This document shows, piece by piece, positions 2,036 through 61,272 of a DNA stretch of 64,000 bases (its first letter is position 1; every line of letters starts with the position of its first letter). The notes below the pieces were generated by a model. It was not told where the DNA came from and searched no databases. It saw nothing but the letters and a program-made list of their open reading frames with translations. This stretch comes from a virus (Duplodnaviria > Caudoviricetes): the IMG/VR virus record IMGVR_UViG_3300028833_000058, one strand, 5' to 3'. The position numbers and the translations under genes were made by a program.

Positions 2036-5000
2036 CTACTTGTATTCTTTAATCACTTCGTTTACTGTAATGTAAGTTGAAATTAGGAACTCATCAACTT
2101 CTGCTTCTATGTTATCAACAGGGTCTAAGACTTTACACCATTGTACGTTTGGAGTTGACATAACAGCTGTGTAGATATCAGAAAGTTTTAATCCTTTTCC
2201 AATATAATCTGGTGTTATCTTAAACAACTTGCTTACGTTGTTTTTGATTTCTTGAATTATCATGTTACTTGTTATAGAAGCACTTGTGGATAAAAATGCG
2301 TTTATTGTAATAGGAACTTGTCTTACTTTAGGTTGTACAAATTCCATATATGTCGTAAAATGATTATATTTTTCAATAATCGGTTGGTCTAAATGGTTTG
2401 TGTCTTGATTATCAATTCTGTTACCAACAAAAGAAGATACTACTTCAATATTGTTGTTTGAATCAATTGATATTGTACCGTTTTGACCAGGTGTTTGACC
2501 ATTGCCAGAAGCAAGTGTAATTGTGATATTCACTGTTAAACCAGTTCCAGACCCTTGTTCACCAATATAAGATGTTGTAACAGTACCTTGTTCGTTTTCT
2601 TGTATAAAGTCATTAGTAATACTATCTGTATTAACTAATAAGTTGTTTAACCAAATAGCTTGGGTTACTTCTCCATTAGTACCAGTAGCAGTTATTTTTA
2701 ACTTCAATTGCCCATTTGTACCGTCTAGTTGAACTACGTCATTTATCGAATAACCAGAACCGAGGTTACCAAATTTGATAGACTGGTATCCTATTCTATA
2801 AACATCTTTGTCTAGTAACATTTCACCAGCTGTTTTTATATATTGGGTACCTACTAAATTTGTACTTTCTTCTGAAGATTCTGTTTCACGTATCGTAACA
2901 GTGTATACACCGTTTACAATATTCATAACTTTAACTAAGAATATTGTTTTTACACCATCTTTGTCATACATATAAGCTAAAACGTTTCCGTCTTCATAAC
3001 CATTTTCTACAGTTATACCATTTGCTTTTACATTGTAGTTGTATAACAAATAATCGTCTTCGTTTATCAAATAATTATCTAAATAGCCAGTGTCTTCTTG
3101 TATTTCAGAATCATCATAAAGAACTTCTTTTGGACCAGGACTATATCTTGTAGGAAAGTTTACATTTAACTCGCCATTGTTTGCATAATTGATATAAGAA
3201 CAATCTTCTTCGTAAAGAAGTTTCATTTTATCAATATTTATTTTAGCATTTGTAGATGAGCTTGCCGTTTGTTCTGTACTATAAAATTCTATTACGAAGA
3301 TGTTATATTTTTCTACTTTATTTCCATTTAAACAGTTAGTCGGATACCAAGTTGTCCAATAATTCATTTCAGAGCTTGGTTTTTCAACATAGGTTTTATC
3401 AATAATTCTTGTCCAATGTTCACTGTTTCTAATGTTTTCATAAGAAGGATTAGCTTCTTGAGTAGCGTACATTGCAAATGTACCGATAAACCTTTCAGAT
3501 GGAGTGGCTTGGAATTTGACACCTACTATACCTTTTCCTTCTATATGGTCACTATAATCGATTATAATTTGTACAGGTTGGAGCAAAGAAGGTGTTTTCG
3601 AACTTTGATAATAATGCTCACTAGAAACGTTTGACCTGATATTTTTAATCGAACTACCATCAAAACCAGGTTCATTGTTTGGGTTATCATTAGTTTTGAC
3701 AAGGGTCTTTGTAAGTTTTTCAACAGATGTGATGTTCACTACTAAAGATGTACCTTTTGTATAGCGTTGGTTTGGTATAGCAGCACAAGGTCTTGATTCA
3801 CCTTCACCAGGCCATGCGTTAGGGTCAGTTGTATTTAATATTTGTTGTTGTAATTTCAAATTAGTTACGGCTCCTGTTGAATTTACATCAGTCACTAACA
3901 CACTCAAACCGTTTTCTAAAAGAACAATGTCACCTACTTTATAATCTTGACCAGCAGTGTCTATCTCGTTGTATGGTTCAAGTTGAATGAAATATGGGCA
4001 TTGTGAATATAAACTAGCTTGCCATTCTGGTAACAAACTATCTCTAGGGTCTTCTCCGTTGTCGTTTATGAATAAGAAGCCTTTAGCACCAGTGTCTTGC
4101 ATTAAAACAAACTTTGTTGGGTCAATGTTATTAGCAATTTTCAAAGAATAAGAACCATAGAATCCTCTGTTACTACCGATGCTACCAGTGAAATTAAAAT
4201 TGTTAGAAACATAACCAATGTTACTATATGGATATACTTCAAATGATTTCAAACCAGTGTAATAAACCATGTTCATCATGATAGAATCGTATGCACCAGC
4301 CATATTAGATTGTTCGTATTCACCCCAAACATTTGATGCTAAATACCCACATTCGTTGTCTAACATTGCAATATAATCTTGTCTACGAATAGCACGATGA
4401 CCAGAAGCATAAACCCAAGGTGAAGTCATACGCAATGTTTCAAGTGATTGTGTACCAAAACCACCATAGCTTGTAGAAGTTGTCTTAACGGTTAAATCTA
4501 AATCTTCTTGATTACCATAAGCATCTGTAAACATTAAACCGTTTTCTAGTTTACCATCAAGTCCTATTTCAGACGTATTACCAGATTCACCATCGTTACT
4601 TACATAGTGAATCAAAAGAGTACTACCAGCTACAGGTAAATCACCAAGTTGACCATTACCTAATTTTAAATAAGACCTACCATCTGAATCTGTTCTCAAG
4701 ACAAGCATTTTAGTTAAATTAGGGTCACTTACATAATTCTTTTCATAATCTAAGAAATTATCTGATACAGACCATTCTTCACCGTTTACATAAGCCCTAA
4801 CGTAGTTTTTGTTAGCTTTGAAGTCTGTAGAGAAATAAAAACGTTCGTAAGGAATACCAGAAGTAGTTTTTGTAACTTCTAGAGCTTCACCTTGTATCAA
4901 AACAATGTCTTTAACAGTTTCTACACCAGCAGGAAGTAATATACCATGTGGATTAAAATATTTTCTTCCATTGATAATAAAAGAAGTTTCAGCAGGAACA

Positions 5001-5361: not shown

Positions 5362-5736
5362 TTATTTTCCAGAAACTCTTGTTGAAATTGAAGATGTTAT
5401 GTTATTTAAACTTGGAACACTAAAAACAACGTTTACTTCATAACTATTCATGTCTACTCTATACACATGAATATCAGCTGGACTTAAACTAACTCTAGGT
5501 TCATTTTGTTCAATGTCTACATAAAGAAAAGCAACAATGTCAGCTGGTTCTACATTGTTTTCAAATAGCAAAGAATACAGGTTTGTTCCATAGTCACGAT
5601 TAAATGGAACAGTACCCTTTGGAGTTGTTAAAAGTCTTTCGATATTTTGCTTTATGGCGTTTAAATCATATACAATGCTGTTTAATTCTGCATTAGATGT
5701 ATTAAACTTTGTGTTCAAGTCTGAATAAGTCGTCAT
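5362..5736 (-). CDS. Baseplate wedge/sheath initiator, gp25-like
   Basis: AIKQNIERLLTTPKGTVPFNRDYGTNL...EPRV GPW/gp25 signature. Confidence 0.9.
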   Translation of the reverse strand: MTTYSDLNTKFNTSNAELNSIVYDLNAIKQNIERLLTTPKGTVPFNRDYGTNLYSLLFENNVEPADIVAFLYVDIEQNEPRVSLSPADIHVYRVDMNSYEVNVVFSVPSLNNITSSISTRVSGK

Positions 5737-5825
5737 TACATGCTTCTTTATAAGGGAAATACATACATCAAATCTTCTCTTATTTAGAACTTATTTTTAG
5801 TATAATTGTTTATAAAATTTTGATA

Positions 5826-6587
5826 TTATCCAATACCTGTAGTAGTTGGTATATTACTCTCTCCAGTTTTAACTCCTTCAACAGTGTGTGTATGTCCAGT
5901 TAAAGTAACATTGTTACTATTTGCTCCAACTTCTGCTTTAGAGGTTATGTTTCCATCTACATCTAACTTACCTGTTATATGTACATCACCTTCTAATTCA
6001 ATTTTTGGTGATGTAACAGTAGCTTTTTCTGATGCTTTAGCTACAAGTGTTTTACATTCAACCGTAGCCGTTTTCTTAGTCTTTACAGTTATATCATCTT
6101 CAGCATTTACAGTAACTTTTTTGACTTTATCTACGTCAACGTCACCAATAAAGTGTACGATTATCTGGTTTTCGTCACCAGTTATATCTATTCCTATAAA
6201 CTGGTCTTCATCAGCAGTTATACCGTATGTATTTAGGTATTTATCACCATCTGGAGTATATTTTGTTTTTTTATAAAGTGCTCCTAGATAAACCAAGGAG
6301 TTTACGTCATTTTGAATAGCTAAAATAAGTAATTTTGTTCCTACTTCTGGTACACAATGGTCAAATTTAGGTGGAGTTTTACCTTTGGATTGATTTTCAG
6401 CATCATCACCCTCTATACCTCTAAAAGCTCTATCTACTCTTGCAGCCCAAGGTAATTTAGAATCCTCAATTTTATCATGTATTTTAGGTATACGAACTCT
6501 AACACGATAGTTTTTAGTTGGGTCATCATTATCAACTACTGTCGCAATGTAAAATGGATTTCTGTCATTTTTAGATTCTAAATACAT
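5826..6587 (-). CDS. Baseplate central spike (gp5/gpV-like)
   Basis: N-terminal OB-fold motif VVDNDDP...RVRVRIP...LPWA, beta-helix repeats, apex HxH (GHTH). Confidence 0.85.
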   Translation of the reverse strand: MYLESKNDRNPFYIATVVDNDDPTKNYRVRVRIPKIHDKIEDSKLPWAARVDRAFRGIEGDDAENQSKGKTPPKFDHCVPEVGTKLLILAIQNDVNSLVYLGALYKKTKYTPDGDKYLNTYGITADEDQFIGIDITGDENQIIVHFIGDVDVDKVKKVTVNAEDDITVKTKKTATVECKTLVAKASEKATVTSPKIELEGDVHITGKLDVDGNITSKAEVGANSNNVTLTGHTHTVEGVKTGESNIPTTTGIG

Positions 6588-8309: not shown

Positions 8310-9473
8310 TTATTTTGGAGATACTGAAGCGTCTTGAATCGTTTGTGATGTTGGTTGAGCTACTTGTATCGCTTTGTTATTACCACCCCATACACCGTAT
8401 GCTTGAGGTTGTGATGGATTAGTAACAGGAGCACCGTTGAAATAAAAATCTTTTCCTGTGTTATACACATCCTTTCCAAGTTTTTTAGCTCCTTCTTCAA
8501 TATAATTTATCATCTTTCCACCAGCTTCTAACACCTTATCAACGTTGAATTCACCTTTACCTTGGTCATCTTGTTGATTCATCCAAAGCATTTTTGTATA
8601 AGTACCTGATGTCAATGTCTCAATTGTTGTTATGTCAATAGTAACTTCAGCTAAAACTGGTGTTAAACTTCCATCACTTCTCATCATTAGATTTTTTGTA
8701 TTTGGATAATTAACGGATATACCTTTTATGATACAGTTGTCTATAAAGAGCATGCCACCTATTTGTACCATAATTCTTGCTCTATTTGGTGCAAAATTAA
8801 AAGTTTTCTTGTTGTATGTGAGGTCTATATTTAACGGAGATGGAGCTGGAGTATAGAAACCAAGTGCACTCTCAGGGTCTAATGTCGGAAGACTTAAACA
8901 ACCAAGGAATTCTAATGCTTCTTTCAGATTAGTTCTTACTTTTGGTTCAGAGCAATGATAAGAATCATCGTCAATCACAGGTATTCTTAACTGTATTCCA
9001 AGTGGCTTTGCTCCACTCCAGATTAAGAAGTTAGCAGCTCTGTTTATACCAGAACGAAAATTTGAACCTATTTTTGCCCAATTTCCACCAGCCTTCATAG
9101 CTGCAGCAGAACCTAATTGAAGTGCAAGGTTACCAACGCCTTTGAAGATATCACTTAAAGGACTTCCCCATTCAGAACCAATTCTATATTGGAAAGTATC
9201 TGGTAAGTTACCAGAGATGATATATGTGCTATCAGCACCAAGCTTTTGACCGTTTGTTGTGATACCATCAAAATCTTGAACATATATTCTTGTCTGGTGA
9301 TATTGTTTTAGATAACCATATTTACCAGAATCTACATTTATGTTTGAGAAATCAAAAGATTTATGGTTAGTTGGATTAGAAGACGTAGATGCATTGAATA
9401 ATGAGTTTGTGAAAACTAATGCTCCATTTGATGTAATTTGTTGTGTTCCATTGTAAGGTTGTGTATTTGGCAT
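8310..9473 (-). CDS. Tail tube initiator / baseplate-tube junction (gp48-like)
   Basis: Downstream of tape measure; C-terminal NCIIKGISVNY...PVLAEVTIDITTIE motif. Confidence 0.5.
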   Translation of the reverse strand: MPNTQPYNGTQQITSNGALVFTNSLFNASTSSNPTNHKSFDFSNINVDSGKYGYLKQYHQTRIYVQDFDGITTNGQKLGADSTYIISGNLPDTFQYRIGSEWGSPLSDIFKGVGNLALQLGSAAAMKAGGNWAKIGSNFRSGINRAANFLIWSGAKPLGIQLRIPVIDDDSYHCSEPKVRTNLKEALEFLGCLSLPTLDPESALGFYTPAPSPLNIDLTYNKKTFNFAPNRARIMVQIGGMLFIDNCIIKGISVNYPNTKNLMMRSDGSLTPVLAEVTIDITTIETLTSGTYTKMLWMNQQDDQGKGEFNVDKVLEAGGKMINYIEEGAKKLGKDVYNTGKDFYFNGAPVTNPSQPQAYGVWGGNNKAIQVAQPTSQTIQDASVSPK

Positions 9474-50785: not shown

Positions 50786-51415
50786 GGTAGTTTTTTTTGT
50801 TTTATTAAAGAAAAAGTTGGTCTTTTTAACCCAGGCAGGAGAAGAACCAACAGAAACTCCATAGAAGGTAACATTAACCTAGTTACCACGGTTTATCATT
50901 CCAGGGCTCTTTCTTGCAGAGCAGCAGATAGTTTCTTTTATGTTCTAGAACTAACAAATACAGTTACACAACGTCTAACTAACGGATGGGTTGTGATAAA
51001 TAGTTATCCCATCAACTATTGGAACTAACAATGAATAAAAAATGATAATTAAGAGATTTTTTATTCGTCTTGTATATTACACAATAATTTTAAAAAGTAA
51101 AGACATTATTTCTTTTTCTTTTTATTATCCACAACAACAGGAACTTCTTTCTTAGGTTCTCTGACGTTGCACTTTGGGGCCTTACCAACATCTTCTGATA
51201 AGTTCTTGATGATAGGACTTAATTTGAGATGTTTAGCCCATTTCTTTTTGAACATCATCTCTTCGAATGATTTCTTCTTCTGTTCAATGTCCATTAACAA
51301 TCTCCTTCTTTGTTGTTATAAGTGTATATAATAGAACAATAAAAAGTTGGACATTTGTAAAGTTTTTGTAGAATTTTATAAAAAAAAGCGTGTCCATAAG
51401 AACACGCTCTATTGT

Positions 51416-51949
51416 TTATCTGGTAATCTGATAGAAGTAATACCTCTTATTTCCGATTCTAACAATTCTAATCATCATAAACGGAAATTCACCTAAACCA
51501 AATAAAGCTTCATATCTTTTGTACTTTGGTTTAGTAAGAGTAAGACCTAAATCTTCTTTTACGTCATTTTCAACTTCTTGAAGTAAATATTCGCATACTT
51601 CATTTGAGCAAAATTCAACATCTTTTTTACAACACAACGGTTGTTCGTGTACCATACCTCTTTCTAAATAATCTTTAAAGTATTCTTTAACGTCAGTTTT
51701 CAATTCTTCATATTCTAAAGCTTGATTTTGATAAGTAATATGTCTTCCTTTATCATCAAAAATGCCATAAGCTCTAATATTGAATAAAGAATCTGTTAAA
51801 CTTTCATCATCTTGTTTCAACATAGACAAGTAATGTTTAACAATCTCAAAACATTTATCAGCAAAATCACGTTTACAATCATTAGTGATATCATCAATAG
51901 AGTTATCACCGAGTTCACGAAAATTGTGGACAGTTTCTTTTTTTAACAT
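51416..51949 (-). CDS. Hypothetical protein
   Basis: SD AAGGA; terminator hairpin at about 51381-51409. Confidence 0.55.
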   Translation of the reverse strand: MLKKETVHNFRELGDNSIDDITNDCKRDFADKCFEIVKHYLSMLKQDDESLTDSLFNIRAYGIFDDKGRHITYQNQALEYEELKTDVKEYFKDYLERGMVHEQPLCCKKDVEFCSNEVCEYLLQEVENDVKEDLGLTLTKPKYKRYEALFGLGEFPFMMIRIVRIGNKRYYFYQITR

Positions 51950-52103: not shown

Positions 52104-52775
52104 TTAAAATTTCATCTTTCGACCTTTTTTCCAGCCTTGAGCTACAAATTGGTCTAAAAATTCTTTTTTTATACTTTTATTTTGTTTTAATTCGTCATTG
52201 TATACCCAACAATGACCATAGTTTGAATTTAAATTCCCTTTTTGACGAATTGAATTTTTTATAGCTATTTTCTTCTTTGTTTCTTCTGTTAAATGTTTTC
52301 CTTTCATTGGGTTTTCATGTGTTCTATAGTATTCTTTAAGTCCGTTTGATATTCTTTCTATGTATTCGGAATATTCTTTTTGTGTCATTGATGTCCAAAA
52401 TTTCTTATTTCCAATGATACATGGGTGATTTTTTCCATATTCAATCCAGTTGTTTTTCGCTTTTATAGATTGGATTTCATGATTGTTACAACAATAATCC
52501 CATCCACCTTCTCCACCAACTTTTATGTTATATGTATCAACTCTTTTTATAAATTCTTCATCGACAAGTTCTTTTTCTTTTTGATTCATTTCTTCTTCAC
52601 TCTTACATTCAAATAAAATTTCTTTTTTAAAATTGTTTAATCCATACTTTTTGAATGCTTCAAAAAGTATTTTTCCAGAACCCATGTATTCATCATTTAT
52701 CTTATCAGTTTTATGTTTTCCAATGTAAATTTTATTGTTTAAAACGTTTGTTATTTTATATATTAAAAAGTACAT
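52104..52775 (-). mobile_element. GIY-YIG (Seg-like) homing endonuclease with NUMOD3, at the end of tRNA operon 1
   Basis: IYKITN...KIYIGKH...YMGSG; MKGKHLTEETKKKI; start revised to ATG 52775 (SD AAGGAG). Confidence 0.88.
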
Positions 52776-52823
52776 AACTGTCTCCTTATGTACTAGAACT
52801 TTTTTGTACACAAATTTTTGAAA

Positions 52824-52898
52824 TGGCACAGGATGGTTAGAATCGAACTACCATCTTTCGGGTTGGAGCCGAATATTTTACCATTAAACTAATCCTGC
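52824..52898 (-). tRNA. tRNA-Trp(CCA)
   Basis: Cloverleaf, TTCGG-CTCCAAC-CCGAA, CCA end. Confidence 0.9.
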
Positions 52899-53571: not shown

Positions 53572-53601
53572 ACGAAATTTATAATATATACCTAAAAATA
53601 A

Positions 53602-53637
53602 GAAAAACCCCCGAAACTTTTTATTTTTTCGGAGGTT
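53602..53637 (-). terminator. Attenuator terminator upstream of tRNA operon 1
   Basis: AACCTCCGAAA-loop-TTTCGGGGGTT followed by TTTCTT. Confidence 0.8.
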
Positions 53638-53676
53638 GTACAATTTTTTACTTAGAGCCAAGAAATAAAGTTTTAG

Positions 53677-53754
53677 TTAATAGTCGACACCTCCGTCAGT
53701 TTTACCTGCGAATCCAAACATGTGCCAACATTTCTTAACTAATCTATTCATCAT
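53677..53754 (-). CDS. Leader peptide 1, MMNRLVKKCWHMFGFAGKTDGGVDY
   Basis: 25 aa ORF with SD AAGGAG; its codons match the downstream Ala/Phe/Lys/Met/Cys/Gly/Trp/His tRNAs. Confidence 0.85.
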   Translation of the reverse strand: MMNRLVKKCWHMFGFAGKTDGGVDY

Positions 53755-53787
53755 ATTAAATAGAACTCCTTTTTCTTTACTTCTTCT

Positions 53788-53816
53788 CTTATATCAAACT
53801 TTTTTCATAAAGTCAA
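53788..53816 (-). promoter_or_regulatory. Sigma70-like promoter upstream of leader 1
   Basis: TTGACT-17-TATAAG; a GTTCTA motif also lies at 53766-53761. Confidence 0.5.
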
Positions 53817-53836
53817 GTATTTTTTTTTAAGATTTT

Positions 53837-53964
53837 TGTCAAAGAGAATTTTTCAAACAGATTTTTGCAGCAGGACTTGAACCTGCATAGCTTTTCAGCT
53901 GTTGTTTTTTGAGAACAATGTGTATACCATTTCACGATGCAACTGTTTGACCGCTTCTTTGACA
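53837..53964 (-). ncRNA. Y-RNA-like (YrlA-type) RNA with tRNA-Leu(CAA)-like domain
   Basis: Terminal stem GTCAAAG-AAGCGG-TCAAACAG / CTGTTTGA-AAAATTCT-CTTTGAC enclosing D arm, CT-CAA-AA loop, long variable arm and GGTTCAAGTCC T arm; downstream of TROVE. Confidence 0.75.
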
Positions 53965-54067
53965 TAATAACTAAATGAAAAACTTTACGTATTTTTCTTG
54001 AGTACTTCTCAACAACGGTTAGTCAACATTGGAGAGGGGGTATGAAGCCCTAGAAGTAATTAGTTTG

Positions 54068-54188
54068 TGGTAAAGAGTATAAATAGAACAGGTTTATTGC
54101 AGTAGGACTTGAACCTACAATCCTTTGATTAAAAATCAAATGTTTTATCCACTTAAACGATGCAACTGTTCCAACCGCTTCTTTACCA
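54068..54188 (-). ncRNA. Y-RNA-like (YrlA-type) RNA with tRNA-Lys(TTT)-like domain
   Basis: Same AAGCGG/CTCT stem motif; TTTGA-TTTTTAA-TCAAA arm; GTAGG-TTCAAGT-CCTAC. Confidence 0.75.
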
Positions 54189-54199
54189 AAATTTATGCT

Positions 54200-54273
54200 C
54201 GAAGAGAATATTTAGAAATTGTGTATTTAGTCAACAACCCTTAGACGATGTAACAATTTCAACCGCTTCTTCG
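54200..54273 (-). ncRNA. Short Y-RNA-like RNA (no tRNA domain)
   Basis: CGAAG-AAGCGG-TTGAAATTG-TTACATCG...CAATTTC...TTCTCTTCG. Confidence 0.65.
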
Positions 54274-54282
54274 CTCTAATAA

Positions 54283-54597
54283 TTATTCACACAAATCAGA
54301 GTTTGTACATGAGTTGTATGGCTTACGACTATATGAAACTTCTTCATAAGTTTTTGGCTCATAAACTGTAGTATAAGTAACATCTTTGTAAATTACTTCT
54401 ACTGGTTTAGAAATAGTGTAACTTGTTGAACAAGTGTTACATTCATTGTTGTAAGAACGATATGTGTTGTAAGAAGGTTTAGTGTAGTTTACAACAGGTT
54501 TTTGTTCTTCAACTTTTGGAGTAACAATTACTTCTTCTGTTTCAGCACAAGTACAAGCACTTAATAAAATAGAGCATAACATTAAAACTTTTTTCAT
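54283..54597 (-). CDS. Small putative lipoprotein
   Basis: MKK + hydrophobic stretch + LSAC lipobox. Confidence 0.7.
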   Translation of the reverse strand: MKKVLMLCSILLSACTCAETEEVIVTPKVEEQKPVVNYTKPSYNTYRSYNNECNTCSTSYTISKPVEVIYKDVTYTTVYEPKTYEEVSYSRKPYNSCTNSDLCE

Positions 54598-54629
54598 GTC
54601 AATTACCTTTCGAACGTTGTTGATAAGTT

Positions 54630-54721
54630 AGTGAGGATTAGAGTATCATAAAGATTTGTTATTTCTAAAGCAGATTACATGTCTGGACTCGATGTAAATC
54701 TTTAACCGCTTAATCCTCACT
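54630..54721 (-). ncRNA. Y-RNA-like RNA immediately after the TROVE stop
   Basis: AGTGAGGATT-AAGCGG-TTAAAGAT-TTACATCG...ATCTTTA...ACTCT-AATCCTCACT. Confidence 0.65.
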
Positions 54722-54724
54722 TTC

Positions 54725-56353
54725 TTAGTCATTTACCGATGTCTTTATTTTAATAGAACTCTTCTTTTCTACTTTTTCATCTGTAATATTATCCATTCTA
54801 TCCCAAATGTCAATTAAAGTTTTAGCATAAATGGATTCTTTACCAGTCCAACCAGTTAGAATACTTGTTCTGTATTCATTTTCTGGCATTACATTGTTGT
54901 CATAGCCAGCTGTTTGAATAGAAAAGATATTAACTTTTGCATTAACCTTTCTTCTATATTCTTGAACAAGCTTTAAGACATCAATGAATTTTGAATTGTT
55001 GTATAAATAATCACGATAATGATGTTCATTTAATCCATACAATCCACCATGACCAGCTTGCATATCAGAGTAGATGAAAATGTTATCGTAATGTATCTTT
55101 TTCTTTATAGCTTCGTCAAAGAATAACCATATACCATTTTCAGTACTAGCACCGATGTTGTGTGAATGTCTACATTGAATTCTATCTAATTGAGACAGTA
55201 CACCATCTCTTTTGTTGACTGATTCGATTTCTAACCTATCTCCAAAGATTCCAACATACCCTTCATCAGAATTAATAGCTGTCATAACTGAAGATAAGTT
55301 ATCAATTTCAGCAACTTTAGTAGAACCATATTCAGTAGTTAATGCACCCCATGCTGAACCAGAGTTATCCGACAAGCAGATGGTCTTACCCTTTAACTTA
55401 GGGAAATTGTCCATTGCTCTATCTATACATCTGTTCAAGCTTTCTACAATAGCAGATTCACCCTTAACACGTGGATTAGAAGTTTGAATAGCCTTTAATG
55501 CAGACCAATATCTAAATGGAAATTGCTTACCCTTTTCGACACCGTTTTCAAGCATTTCAAGAACTTGCTTTCTGACATCTTCATCTTCAATCTCAGTAAA
55601 AATACCACGTAAGTTTCTTAAAAGAGCCATATGTGGGACATAAGTTGCTTGTAAAATTTCTGTCCAAGTTTTACCAGCACTTCTTAACTTTTCCCAAGTA
55701 GATTCTTCTTCTGTAACTTCAATAGTACCAGACTTCATAAGTTCATCAATGTCTTCAGAGTGAGCATGACAAATACGAACTAAGTCGATGATTTTAGCAC
55801 TTGTCTTGTACTTAGCCAATTGATATTTTTTAGTTACAGATAATTTGTTAGCCCATGCTCTTTTTAAGATAGATGGTAATTTACTTTTGGAGCCATTGAA
55901 GAACATCCACAATTCGAACTGATTCCAAATGTCAGTAGGAATGTTGATAACTTCTTCAATGCAACTACGCATGAACACCTTGTTTTCTTCATTAAAAGCT
56001 TTTCTACCATCATACATTACAGCTCTAACCATAATCAAAGCTGGGTTTAAACGCATATTGTATTCATATCTTAACTTTTTAGCAAGATTTAATACACCTT
56101 CGAAATCATAAGCTAAAGCATTGTCACAAGCTTCAACAAAAGTTGCTGTTGTACCAGATAACTCTTTGTTGTTAGCACCATCGTTTTTGTAATATGACTT
56201 TTCACCAAAAATAGATGACGCAGCAACCATTTCTAGCTCTAGCAATGGGTTAGTTTTATAGGAAATACCATTCATGAAGTTTACAACTTGCTCATCTTTG
56301 TGCTTGTTGTAATCTGCTTCAGATTTCTTTGCATAACCTGAGAATTTAGACAT
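54725..56353 (-). CDS. Ro60/Rsr TROVE-domain RNA-binding protein with C-terminal vWA domain
   Basis: DLVRICH, TWE, PHMALLRNLR, KQFPFRYWSA, vWA DNSGS...SDMQ, GW. Confidence 0.9.
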   Translation of the reverse strand: MSKFSGYAKKSEADYNKHKDEQVVNFMNGISYKTNPLLELEMVAASSIFGEKSYYKNDGANNKELSGTTATFVEACDNALAYDFEGVLNLAKKLRYEYNMRLNPALIMVRAVMYDGRKAFNEENKVFMRSCIEEVINIPTDIWNQFELWMFFNGSKSKLPSILKRAWANKLSVTKKYQLAKYKTSAKIIDLVRICHAHSEDIDELMKSGTIEVTEEESTWEKLRSAGKTWTEILQATYVPHMALLRNLRGIFTEIEDEDVRKQVLEMLENGVEKGKQFPFRYWSALKAIQTSNPRVKGESAIVESLNRCIDRAMDNFPKLKGKTICLSDNSGSAWGALTTEYGSTKVAEIDNLSSVMTAINSDEGYVGIFGDRLEIESVNKRDGVLSQLDRIQCRHSHNIGASTENGIWLFFDEAIKKKIHYDNIFIYSDMQAGHGGLYGLNEHHYRDYLYNNSKFIDVLKLVQEYRRKVNAKVNIFSIQTAGYDNNVMPENEYRTSILTGWTGKESIYAKTLIDIWDRMDNITDEKVEKKSSIKIKTSVND

Positions 56354-56387
56354 TTTAGTTCCTTCCTTTCTTTCTCGATTTGTTGTG

Positions 56388-56421
56388 ATTATATTTTCAA
56401 TTTTTGTTAAAGTAAAGTCAA
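56388..56421 (-). promoter_or_regulatory. Sigma70-like promoter of the TROVE/Y-RNA unit
   Basis: TTGACTTTACT...: TTTACT-17-TATAAT. Confidence 0.6.
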
Positions 56422-60187: not shown

Positions 60188-60706
60188 TTAAGCTTTTTTA
60201 TAAGATTTATTCTTCAATATAAAGATTATTCTGCTATGTGCAACACCAAATTTTCTAGCTAATCCACGAGTTCCGAATTCTTTATGTTTTGGAATATAAT
60301 GTTCTCTTATCCATTTAGCTTGTTCATTTGTAAGTTTTGCACCATGGTTATCTTCACCACCATGATATGTTATTAAATTATGCTTTACTGCGTGAATAGT
60401 ATTTTCTTGATTAGTACACCACTCTAAGTTATCCCAACGATTGTTTAATTTGTTTCCATCAATGTGATTTACTTGTGGTTTGTTTTCTGGATTTGGTACA
60501 AAAGCTTCAGCAACCAACCTGTGAATTTTTACACATTTACATCCACCTTTTCTACCATTTGGATATAAAGCGTATACATAATAGCCTGTCTTTCCAATTT
60601 GTTGCTTTACGTTTTTGTTAGACCTACCCTTTAGATTGCCTAGATTACTTATAAAATAACCTTGTATATCAATTTCTTTCCAAATTTCTTCTTCGATGTT
60701 TTCCAT
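60188..60706 (-). mobile_element. NUMOD4-HNH homing endonuclease inserted between tRNAs
   Basis: EIWKEI..YFISNLG; HRLVAEAF...VNHIDGNKLNN...NLEW. Confidence 0.92.
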
Positions 60707-61197: not shown

Positions 61198-61272
61198 TGG
61201 TGCCACATGAGAATTTTGCAATCCCGACCTACCGCTTACAAGGCGGTTGCTCTACTTCTGAGCTAATGTGGC
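61198..61272 (-). tRNA. tRNA-Thr(TGT)
   Basis: ACCGC-CTTGTAA-GCGGT. Confidence 0.9.

Follow-up and report, generated by a model that had tools for sequence, protein, structure and literature searches.

Based on sequence analysis of a 64,000-nucleotide (nt) stretch of DNA from a large, uncultured gut phage of the Caudoviricetes (IMG/VR virus record IMGVR_UViG_3300028833_000058; the whole stretch is called the window here), we found a gene for a Ro60 protein that is followed on the same strand by four small structured RNA elements, A to D, two of which contain complete tRNA-like bodies with an anticodon loop. We propose that these elements are Y RNAs that work with the phage Ro60 protein, and that the tRNA-bodied ones act as mimics of the targets of host factors. 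To this statement as a whole we give a probability of roughly 60%; its first part, that A to D are phage Y RNAs and partners of Ro60, we consider highly probable. What appears to be new is a class of phage Y RNAs with a signature of its own and with unpermuted, anticodon-bearing tRNA bodies, which is widespread and is unannotated in the one record examined for this, that of phage G.

The Ro60 gene and the RNA elements beside it

The features of the locus are listed below; R1 is a covariance model that is described in the next section.

54725-56353, minus strand: Ro60/Rsr orthologue of 542 amino acids (aa), with a TROVE HEAT-repeat ring and, in addition, a vWA (von Willebrand factor A) domain that carries the MIDAS (metal-ion-dependent adhesion site) motif DxSxS (D329, S331, S333)
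54630-54721, minus strand: Y-like RNA A, 92 nt; 11-base-pair (bp) stem1, AGCGGU and 9-bp stem2, without a tRNA body; R1 22.4 bits, E 0.002
54200-54273, minus strand: Y-like RNA B, 74 nt; the minimal form, made up of stem1, AGCGGUU and stem2, its loop starting with UACAUCG
54068-54188, minus strand: Y-like RNA C, 121 nt; at 54094-54167 it has a complete body like that of tRNA-Lys(UUU); R1 E 0.004
53837-53964, minus strand: Y-like RNA D, 128 nt; tRNA-Leu(CAA)-like body with a long variable arm at 53862-53944; R1 E 0.014
56388-56421, minus strand: sigma-70-like promoter candidates 5' of the Ro60 open reading frame (ORF), from a consensus scan only and weak

On sequence and modelled structure the ORF at 54725-56353 is a Ro60 orthologue, because it matches the Pfam TROVE family (PF05731; 43.7 bits with a cut-off of 23, E 2.8e-11), its top PDB sequence match is the Ro60 protein of Thermus phage phiLo (9KOP/9L5Y, E 3e-13), and its AlphaFold2 (AF2) model matches known Ro60 structures. 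The alignment with phiLo Ro60 extends into the D-x-S-x-S MIDAS motif, and the residues D329-x-S331-x-S333 were invariant across 20 homologues in a 20-sequence alignment. The AF2 model (predicted local distance difference test 79) gave its best template modelling (TM) score, 0.70, with Xenopus laevis Ro (1YVP), and also matched phiLo Ro60, D. radiodurans Rsr (2NVO) and human Ro60. In this model the full-length ring appears closed by the vWA domain, the matches with 1YVP, 9NEP, 9KOP and 2NVO spanning about 520-570 alignment columns with TM up to 0.70. A Ro60/TROVE gene had been proposed earlier from the sequence alone (the original prediction), and Pfam, PDB and AF2 all support it.

The four elements lie downstream of the Ro60 ORF on the minus strand (distances 4-2500 nt) and have a common architecture, consisting of stem1 / AGCGG(U) / stem2 / UURCAUC / variable domain / stem2' / an A-U-rich loop ending (U/A)(U/A)C / UC-stem1'. 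The closing stem1 has 6-11 bp and the inner stem2 8-9 bp, and the conserved motifs are flanked by the stems and unpaired. In the 64-kb window AAGCGGT was seen six times where 2.2 occurrences were expected, and four of the six are found within 760 nt downstream of the TROVE ORF. Folding was better than that of shuffled sequence for A (z -3.65), C (z -3.11) and D (z -3.87); element B folded no better than shuffled sequence (z -0.4). The original prediction had placed four Y-RNA-like genes with a shared motif and covarying stems at these positions, and on this the tools and the comparative data given below agree.

A to D would probably be cut out of one common transcript, since no terminator-like site was found on the minus strand from the Ro60 ORF to element D, the gap between B and C is only 11 nt, and the promoter matches are weak, those at 56388-56421 being no more numerous than in shuffled sequence. 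The window is part of a 79-kb virus contig, in which A to D are the only four copies of the module. As CheckV rates this contig 33% complete, the genome of the source phage is probably above 200 kb.

Orthologues of A and B were found in the related locus L001, at 5649-5739 and 5753-5830. In the window a 104-aa ORF lies between them (54283-54597, minus strand); it has a lipoprotein-type signal (…LLSAC) and no Pfam or PHROG match. Judged from the sequence it looks like an insertion into the RNA cluster, because A and B are adjacent in L001, the closest relative.

Recurrence beside Ro60 genes and relation to known Y RNAs

With a search for the motif and its closing stem, the module was found beside Ro60 in about 40 of 44 related IMG/VR loci, which had been retrieved with the window Ro60 protein (25-84% identity) and include near-duplicates (L012/L013, L021/L022, L027/L036/L042), so that locus counts overstate the number of independent lineages. 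Each of these loci has 1-5 copies, almost always on the same strand as the Ro60 gene, and they lie either downstream of it by 20-450 nt or upstream by a few hundred nt. The Ro60 proteins of the window and of L001 are 84-85% identical.

Fourteen small copies, 13 from other phages and B from the window, were aligned by MAFFT with no structure fitting. RNAalifold gave a consensus of two helices with 16 pairs, of which 14 show compensatory changes. In this alignment 93% of the cells were paired, compared to 63% in shuffles and 39-53% in slid controls, and none of 500 shuffles reached any of the observed pairing measures. The covariance model R1 was built from this alignment, so that B is a training sequence (56.1 bits) and A, C and D are outside the training set. 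R1 scores tRNA-bodied and large copies weakly, due to their long insertions. On the whole window with filters off, A to D were the top four matches (E 4e-12, 0.002, 0.004 and 0.014) and the next had E 0.8, the E-values being rough after a short calibration. This fifth match (51365-51466, minus strand, 12.6 bits; GAAUCGG … UUACUUC … AAUUCU) overlaps the 3' end of an ORF at 51416-51949 and is probably due to chance.

In 458 kb of TROVE loci R1 gave 91 matches, all on the TROVE strand. As a control we used 100 viral loci (0.9 Mb) in which the linear motif is present by chance. Matches were obtained there in L073 and L140, which contain TROVE, in L123, which has TROVE within about 1.5 kb, and in L049, a 26-kb fragment, and in no others. 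On contigs of metagenome-assembled genomes R1 matches likewise adjoin TROVE genes, with one opposite-strand exception. The control loci came from a linear pattern scan of IMG/VR (GAAGCGG, 6-10 nt, TTACTTC), which itself could not test linkage; among the matches listed in it almost all are chance ones without closing stems. A megablast of the locus against 50,697 phage records gave nothing.

The cultured Bacillus phage G (L171, JN638751) has five copies of the module at 3199-3845, in an unannotated 1-kb gap between gp539 and, downstream of the gap, the TROVE gene gp540, whose product is 48% identical to the window Ro60. A sixth copy lies about 5 kb away (9304-9370), after a tRNA-Gly and near the phage transfer-messenger RNA. 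None of the copies is annotated in the JN638751 record. The original prediction had called for a covariance model and a scan of TROVE neighbourhoods, and had named the absence of the motif from TROVE genes elsewhere as the result that would speak against it; the linkage was clearly seen in the related loci, in the metagenomic contigs and in phage G.

From 44 non-redundant family members we derived a consensus with Y-G-A / A-G-C-G-G / U on the 5' strand, in which stem2 is followed by (A/G)G(U/A)UAC(U/A)UC(A/G) and the 3' strand has A/U-rich-U-U-C / U-C. A further pairing between GAAG and CUUC was considered and dropped, as both CAUC and CUUC are found with GAAG and there is thus no covariation. 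In most members the conserved UACUUC is followed only by a single-stranded loop rich in A. Three size classes were observed, of 71-96 nt with a loop only, of 102-136 nt with a tRNA body, and of 160-245 nt with a conserved larger domain.

Some related loci hold further forms of the module. The 160-245-nt class occurs in L004-L026 and L037-L038, about 400 nt upstream of TROVE (for example L021 3517-3749), and has a conserved, covarying inner domain (…CAGUAGCUCGGUUUAAUUCAC…GACUAGAAAU…hairpin…) that no Rfam family matches. In L027 (8140-8271; also in L036 and L042), about 2.5 kb downstream of the Ro60 gene, a 132-nt tRNA (Rfam 50.6 bits) has its anticodon arm replaced by a loop-capped, circularly permuted module, with stem2', AAUUAUUCUC, loop, GAAGCGG, stem2 and UUACUUC. 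In L002 (5842-6000) the module has a variable domain in the YrlA order of T arm, closed hairpin and D arm, which appears to link the module family to the classical YrlA architecture.

YrlA RNAs were previously found near Ro60 in 254 bacteria and 22 phages by Chen et al., 2014; they have a 5' GNCGAAN0-1G motif and a permuted tRNA-like domain with the Ro60 stem in place of the anticodon arm (PMC4201824). Shared with YrlA are the position beside Ro60 on the same strand, a terminal helix whose 5' strand bears a conserved motif, a tRNA-like domain that includes D and T arms, and the presence of several Y RNAs at some loci; YrlA too occurs in phages, and is known from Salmonella, Mycobacterium and mycobacteriophages. 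However, the tRNA domain of YrlA is permuted (T arm, closed 'acceptor' hairpin, D arm) and lacks an anticodon loop, whereas C and D have the normal tRNA order and a full anticodon arm, with the putative Ro60 stem extending the acceptor helix. The family also reads (Y)GA-AGCGG instead of GNCGAAN0-1G. The Rfam YrlA model (RF02553) gave no match up to E 10 in 53600-54800, and none at E <=0.001 in the 79-kb contig, 25 related loci had no match that reached the gathering score, and the Rfam Y_RNA model did not match the window elements; Rfam as a whole, at gathering and at E 10, gave only tRNA matches and chance ones. The original prediction, which had asked for the YrlA and Y RNA models to be run and had noted a difference from the YrlA consensus, was right on this point.

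The sequences by which Y RNAs are known to contact Ro60, GGUCCGA for animals and either GNCGAAN0-1G or CGAA for bacteria and phiLo, are not found in the window copies, which read AGAAGCGG or UUAAGCGG and have no CGAA core. Across the 44 members GNCGAAN0-1G occurred in 3, CGAA in 10 and YGAAGCGG in 29; in relatives YGAAGCGG overlaps the published CGAA core, yet it is not the same motif. Phage phiLo, whose Ro60 is the closest solved one, has a phage-encoded Ro60 that binds two stem-bulge-stem RNAs, Yrl1 and Yrl2, adjoining its gene and carrying CGAA (PMC12135203; 9KOP, 9L5Y). These resemble the window elements in their stem-internal bulge-stem form, but were defined by a CGAA motif that lies upstream of the gene, and they are without a tRNA body. 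R1 found nothing in the phiLo upstream gap that holds Yrl1 and Yrl2, and its lone phiLo match is weak and overlaps a downstream coding sequence. Yrn1 of D. radiodurans is similar to C and D in that its Ro60-binding stem stands in the place of the acceptor and D-like and T-like elements are separated by an 'anticodon-like' arm, but its D arm is only partial, its loop has 6 nt and a variable arm is lacking (PMC4201824). Compared by description, both window bodies form full cloverleaves whose 7-nt loops read Y-U-NNN-A-A, and that of D includes a type-II variable arm; no sequence relationship with Yrn1 was seen, no test for one being made.

Two features by which Y RNAs are recognised were observed for A to D, namely a same-strand gene beside Ro60, and 5' and 3' ends paired as a long helix that is broken by a conserved bulge (here two covarying helices and AGCGG). 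By position and architecture they thus appear to be Y RNAs that do not belong to YrlA. The bulged helix is the predicted Ro60-binding site, by analogy with the bulged terminal helix of animal, bacterial and phiLo Y RNAs. Ro60 would bind stem1, the unpaired AGCGG(U), the A/U-rich 3' strand ending (U/A)(U/A)C, and stem2.

The tRNA bodies of C and D and their possible role

The body of C (54094-54167) was called as tRNA-Lys(UUU) by ARAGORN and by the Rfam tRNA model (56.4 bits), and that of D (53862-53944) as tRNA-Leu(CAA) by ARAGORN and by the Rfam tRNA model with 37.8 bits over model positions 3-68. Both are full cloverleaves in normal, unpermuted tRNA order, in which the D, the anticodon and the T arm are all present and the anticodon loop has 7 nt. 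The two complete bodies, with the long variable arm of the Leu-like one, had been recognised in the original prediction, as had the acceptor helix that enters the shared stem rather than a CCA end. There are only five clean acceptor pairs in C and D (UUGCA/UGCAA), after which the 5' strand passes directly into stem2, whereas the 3' strand reaches stem2' by way of a bulge of 4-5 nt. No CCA is encoded in either body, the 3' side being AAAU or UAAAC and not N-CCA, whereas it is encoded in 20 of the 22 other tRNA genes called by ARAGORN in this phage. A functional tRNA has a 7-bp acceptor stem with a free CCA 3' end, which C and D as encoded do not have. It seems that they cannot be charged as encoded, because the ends of the body are locked into a helix and no free CCA end is present.

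The GC content of the C and D bodies is 31-39%; the other tRNA genes have 49% and the window has 32%. That they are recent copies of the phage's own tRNAs was considered and rejected, the best identity being 62% with a background of 56%.

Eleven tRNA-bodied copies were compared (window, L001, L027, L029 and L031). Covariation was counted for the anticodon and T stems only, since MAFFT misaligned the 3' halves; in these stems 98% of the cells were paired, and all five anticodon-stem pairs had compensatory changes. The anticodon loop was a 7-nt Y-U-NNN-A-A in every one of the eleven. Their anticodons were UUU in five copies and CAA, UGA, GCU, GGU, GUA and UUA in the others; the distant locus L044 has a tRNA-bodied copy with CGA. 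A Lys-UUU copy was present in every phage examined that has several tRNA-bodied copies (the five named above). The scaffold that bears UUU in L029 is the one bearing GCU in L027 and UUA in L031, and the scaffold with UUU in L027 and L031 carries GUA in L029. Between the window and L001 the tRNA-like body of C differs at 2 of 74 positions, and stem1 is altered with compensation. For D the D arm and the anticodon stem and loop are identical except for anticodon positions 34 and 35 (CAA versus UGA), and the variable, T and acceptor stems are altered with compensation. These conserved scaffolds with switched anticodons, together with the recurring UUU, point to selection on tRNA shape and on display of the anticodon loop, and not on decoding with a fixed amino-acid identity, as far as can be judged from sequence comparison.

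In the mechanism we propose, the variable domain would be the working end of the RNA, which in C and D is a full cloverleaf whose elbow is intact and whose anticodon loop has 7 nt. Capped by Ro60 and protected from exonucleases, the tRNA bodies would occupy host factors that read tRNA anticodon arms. The leading candidates are anticodon nucleases of the PrrC, RloC or PARIS-AriB kind, and their occupation would spare the tRNAs that the phage needs. Elements A and B, without a tRNA body, would serve other Ro60 roles, for example ring gating or tethering of a host exonuclease. Such a decoy or competitor role against anticodon-directed host factors is the mechanism we prefer, although only tentatively and at less than even odds. 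Decoys for anticodon nucleases, or adaptors, had been suggested as possible roles in the original prediction, and the recurring Lys-UUU and the changed anticodons on orthologous scaffolds agree with such roles. It is favoured because the bodies appear not to be chargeable as encoded, because the anticodon loop is conserved yet switchable, and because tRNA-Lys(UUU) is a classic anticodon-nuclease target. Further reasons are that a tRNA-decoy idea was previously raised for YrlA (PMC7790460) and that a Ro60-like protein of phage Bas63 counters a defence system; the authors of the latter study guessed that some of the downstream 'tRNAs' were Y RNAs (PMC11482910). A more specific form, in which a Lys-UUU copy would be kept and other anticodons swapped onto conserved scaffolds to match the anticodon nucleases of the hosts, is conceivable but doubtful.

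Several observations weigh against the reading of A to D as Ro60 partners with decoy bodies. The window copies are without the CGAA core that is tied elsewhere to Ro60 binding. No single nuclease target is obvious for the anticodons CAA, UGA, GCU, GGU, GUA, UUA and CGA. A tRNA body is missing from most family members, among them every copy in phage G, and therefore decoying cannot be the core function of the family. Moreover, decoying at a useful stoichiometry would need high RNA abundance, and the repair cassette described in the next section adds little, as it is not conserved in relatives.

The strongest of the other explanations is that the RNAs are adaptors or tethers, Y RNAs gating the Ro60 ring and tethering a host enzyme as in the machine formed by Ro60, Y RNA and polynucleotide phosphorylase (PNPase). 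The task of the tRNA bodies would then be to recruit tRNA-handling enzymes, or to guide Ro60 and the nuclease to damaged or misfolded tRNAs for decay or repair, and not to sequester nucleases. Tethering is the sole experimentally established role of bacterial and phage Y RNAs, as in D. radiodurans RYPER and phiLo Ro60-Yrl-PNPase (PMC4201824, PMC12135203), and the A-rich single-stranded loop after UACUUC in most members would suit a KH/S1-type binder. The window also has a polynucleotide kinase (Pnk), phosphoesterase and Rnl1-like set, but RtcB is absent from the near-complete relatives tested and no clear Rnl1-like ligase was found there. The kept 7-nt anticodon loops, the recurring UUU and the anticodon differences between orthologous scaffolds would be left unexplained. 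As an account of the locus as a whole we consider this possible, if rather unlikely; it is partly compatible with decoying, and is probably the role of the copies without a tRNA body.

That C and D are unusual tRNA precursors is improbable. Trimming by RNase P and a 3' nuclease, followed by CCA addition, would then give tRNA-Lys(UUU) and tRNA-Leu(CAA), and the Ro60 module would have the part of a chaperone or of a timer. Each cloverleaf is complete and has its elbow nucleotides, C is able to form six of seven acceptor pairs and has a discriminator A, and ARAGORN found no other Leu(CAA) gene in the phage. However, D has only five acceptor pairs, with A/A at 1-72 and G/A at 2-71, neither body has the CCA that most other tRNA genes of the phage encode, and the phage already owns a high-scoring tRNA-Lys(UUU) (79 bits). 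In L027 and L031 the acceptor helix runs unbroken into stem2, and the same module is found without any tRNA in A, B and phage G. In addition, the L001 orthologue of D keeps the body but has replaced the Leu anticodon by a Ser one, and would miscode if charged by body identity.

The idea of non-functional remnants (decaying tRNA duplicates or recombination repeats), or of cis-acting processing or attenuation structures for neighbouring operons, would fit with a locus just upstream of a tRNA array and its leader and with mimic bodies as AT-rich as the genome, but it is very improbable and seems largely refuted by the covariation in both module stems and in the anticodon and T stems, by a Lys-like body differing at only 2 of 74 positions between phages with 84-85% identical Ro60, and by a linkage that is with the Ro60 gene, whether upstream or downstream of it, rather than with tRNA arrays.

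Neighbouring genes and biological meaning

About 8 kb from the Ro60/Y-RNA locus there are three adjacent genes with similarity to the RNA-end repair set of phage T4.

43897-46626, minus strand: T4-like RNA-end repair set of a metallophosphoesterase, an Rnl1-type ligase-like protein and a polynucleotide-kinase-like P-loop protein (PHROG 1649, 562, 505; Pfam Metallophos, AAA_33)

The ligase annotation is based on PHROG 562 (T4 Rnl1-type RNA ligase) alone, as neither Pfam nor PDB sequence searches supported it and the PDB matches were spurious helical repeats. In 10 related phage contigs, 4 of them at least 96% complete, homologues of the window ligase, PHROG 562 and RtcB were absent or marginal; the repair enzymes are therefore not a fixed partner of the Ro60 locus. 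In T4, Pnk and Rnl1 repair tRNA-Lys cut by PrrC (Amitsur 1987, cited in PMC7790460), and phage tRNAs can resist or replace tRNAs that are cut by anticodon nucleases. These systems concern the same threat as the proposed decoys, cleavage of the anticodon loop including that of tRNA-Lys(UUU). Phages that have them likewise carry large tRNA sets, and the window has an authentic tRNA-Lys(UUU) in addition to the Pnk/Rnl1-like set. However, those systems consist of working, chargeable tRNAs or of repair enzymes, whereas C and D appear unchargeable as encoded and are fused to a Ro60-type module.

Other observations concern the tRNA genes. A further Rfam tRNA call (61201-61272, minus strand, 55.9 bits) is not listed by ARAGORN. 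Near Ro60 loci there are tRNA or tRNA-like genes with a UUA anticodon, at L027 6167-6256, L031 1826-1898 and L171 8462-8536 (phage G gp552); such an anticodon would read the UAA stop codon, and may bear on stop-codon reading or on mimicry. Genes for homing endonucleases, of the GIY-YIG (SegE-like, NUMOD3) and HNH types, were found next to or within the tRNA arrays flanking the Ro60 locus (52104-52829 and 60188-60706, both minus strand).

Ro60 and Y RNAs are conserved from bacteria to humans. The class of Y RNAs described here is missed by the Rfam YrlA and Y_RNA models and is common in large phages, so copies stay unannotated, and the tRNA-bodied forms get called ordinary tRNA genes by ARAGORN and the Rfam tRNA model. 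As the anticodon loops are real ones, 'tRNA mimicry' becomes a set of testable specificities (Lys UUU, Leu CAA, Ser UGA), and phage G offers a cultured system for the study of the putative Ro60-binding module. If the tRNA bodies are decoys, the biology of Ro60 would be tied to tRNA-cleaving anti-phage defence. If, further, the decoys are exchangeable, Ro60 and its Y RNAs would be a general phage counter-defence against tRNA-cleaving immunity, and this would be a first clear function for the tRNA-like domains of Y RNAs.

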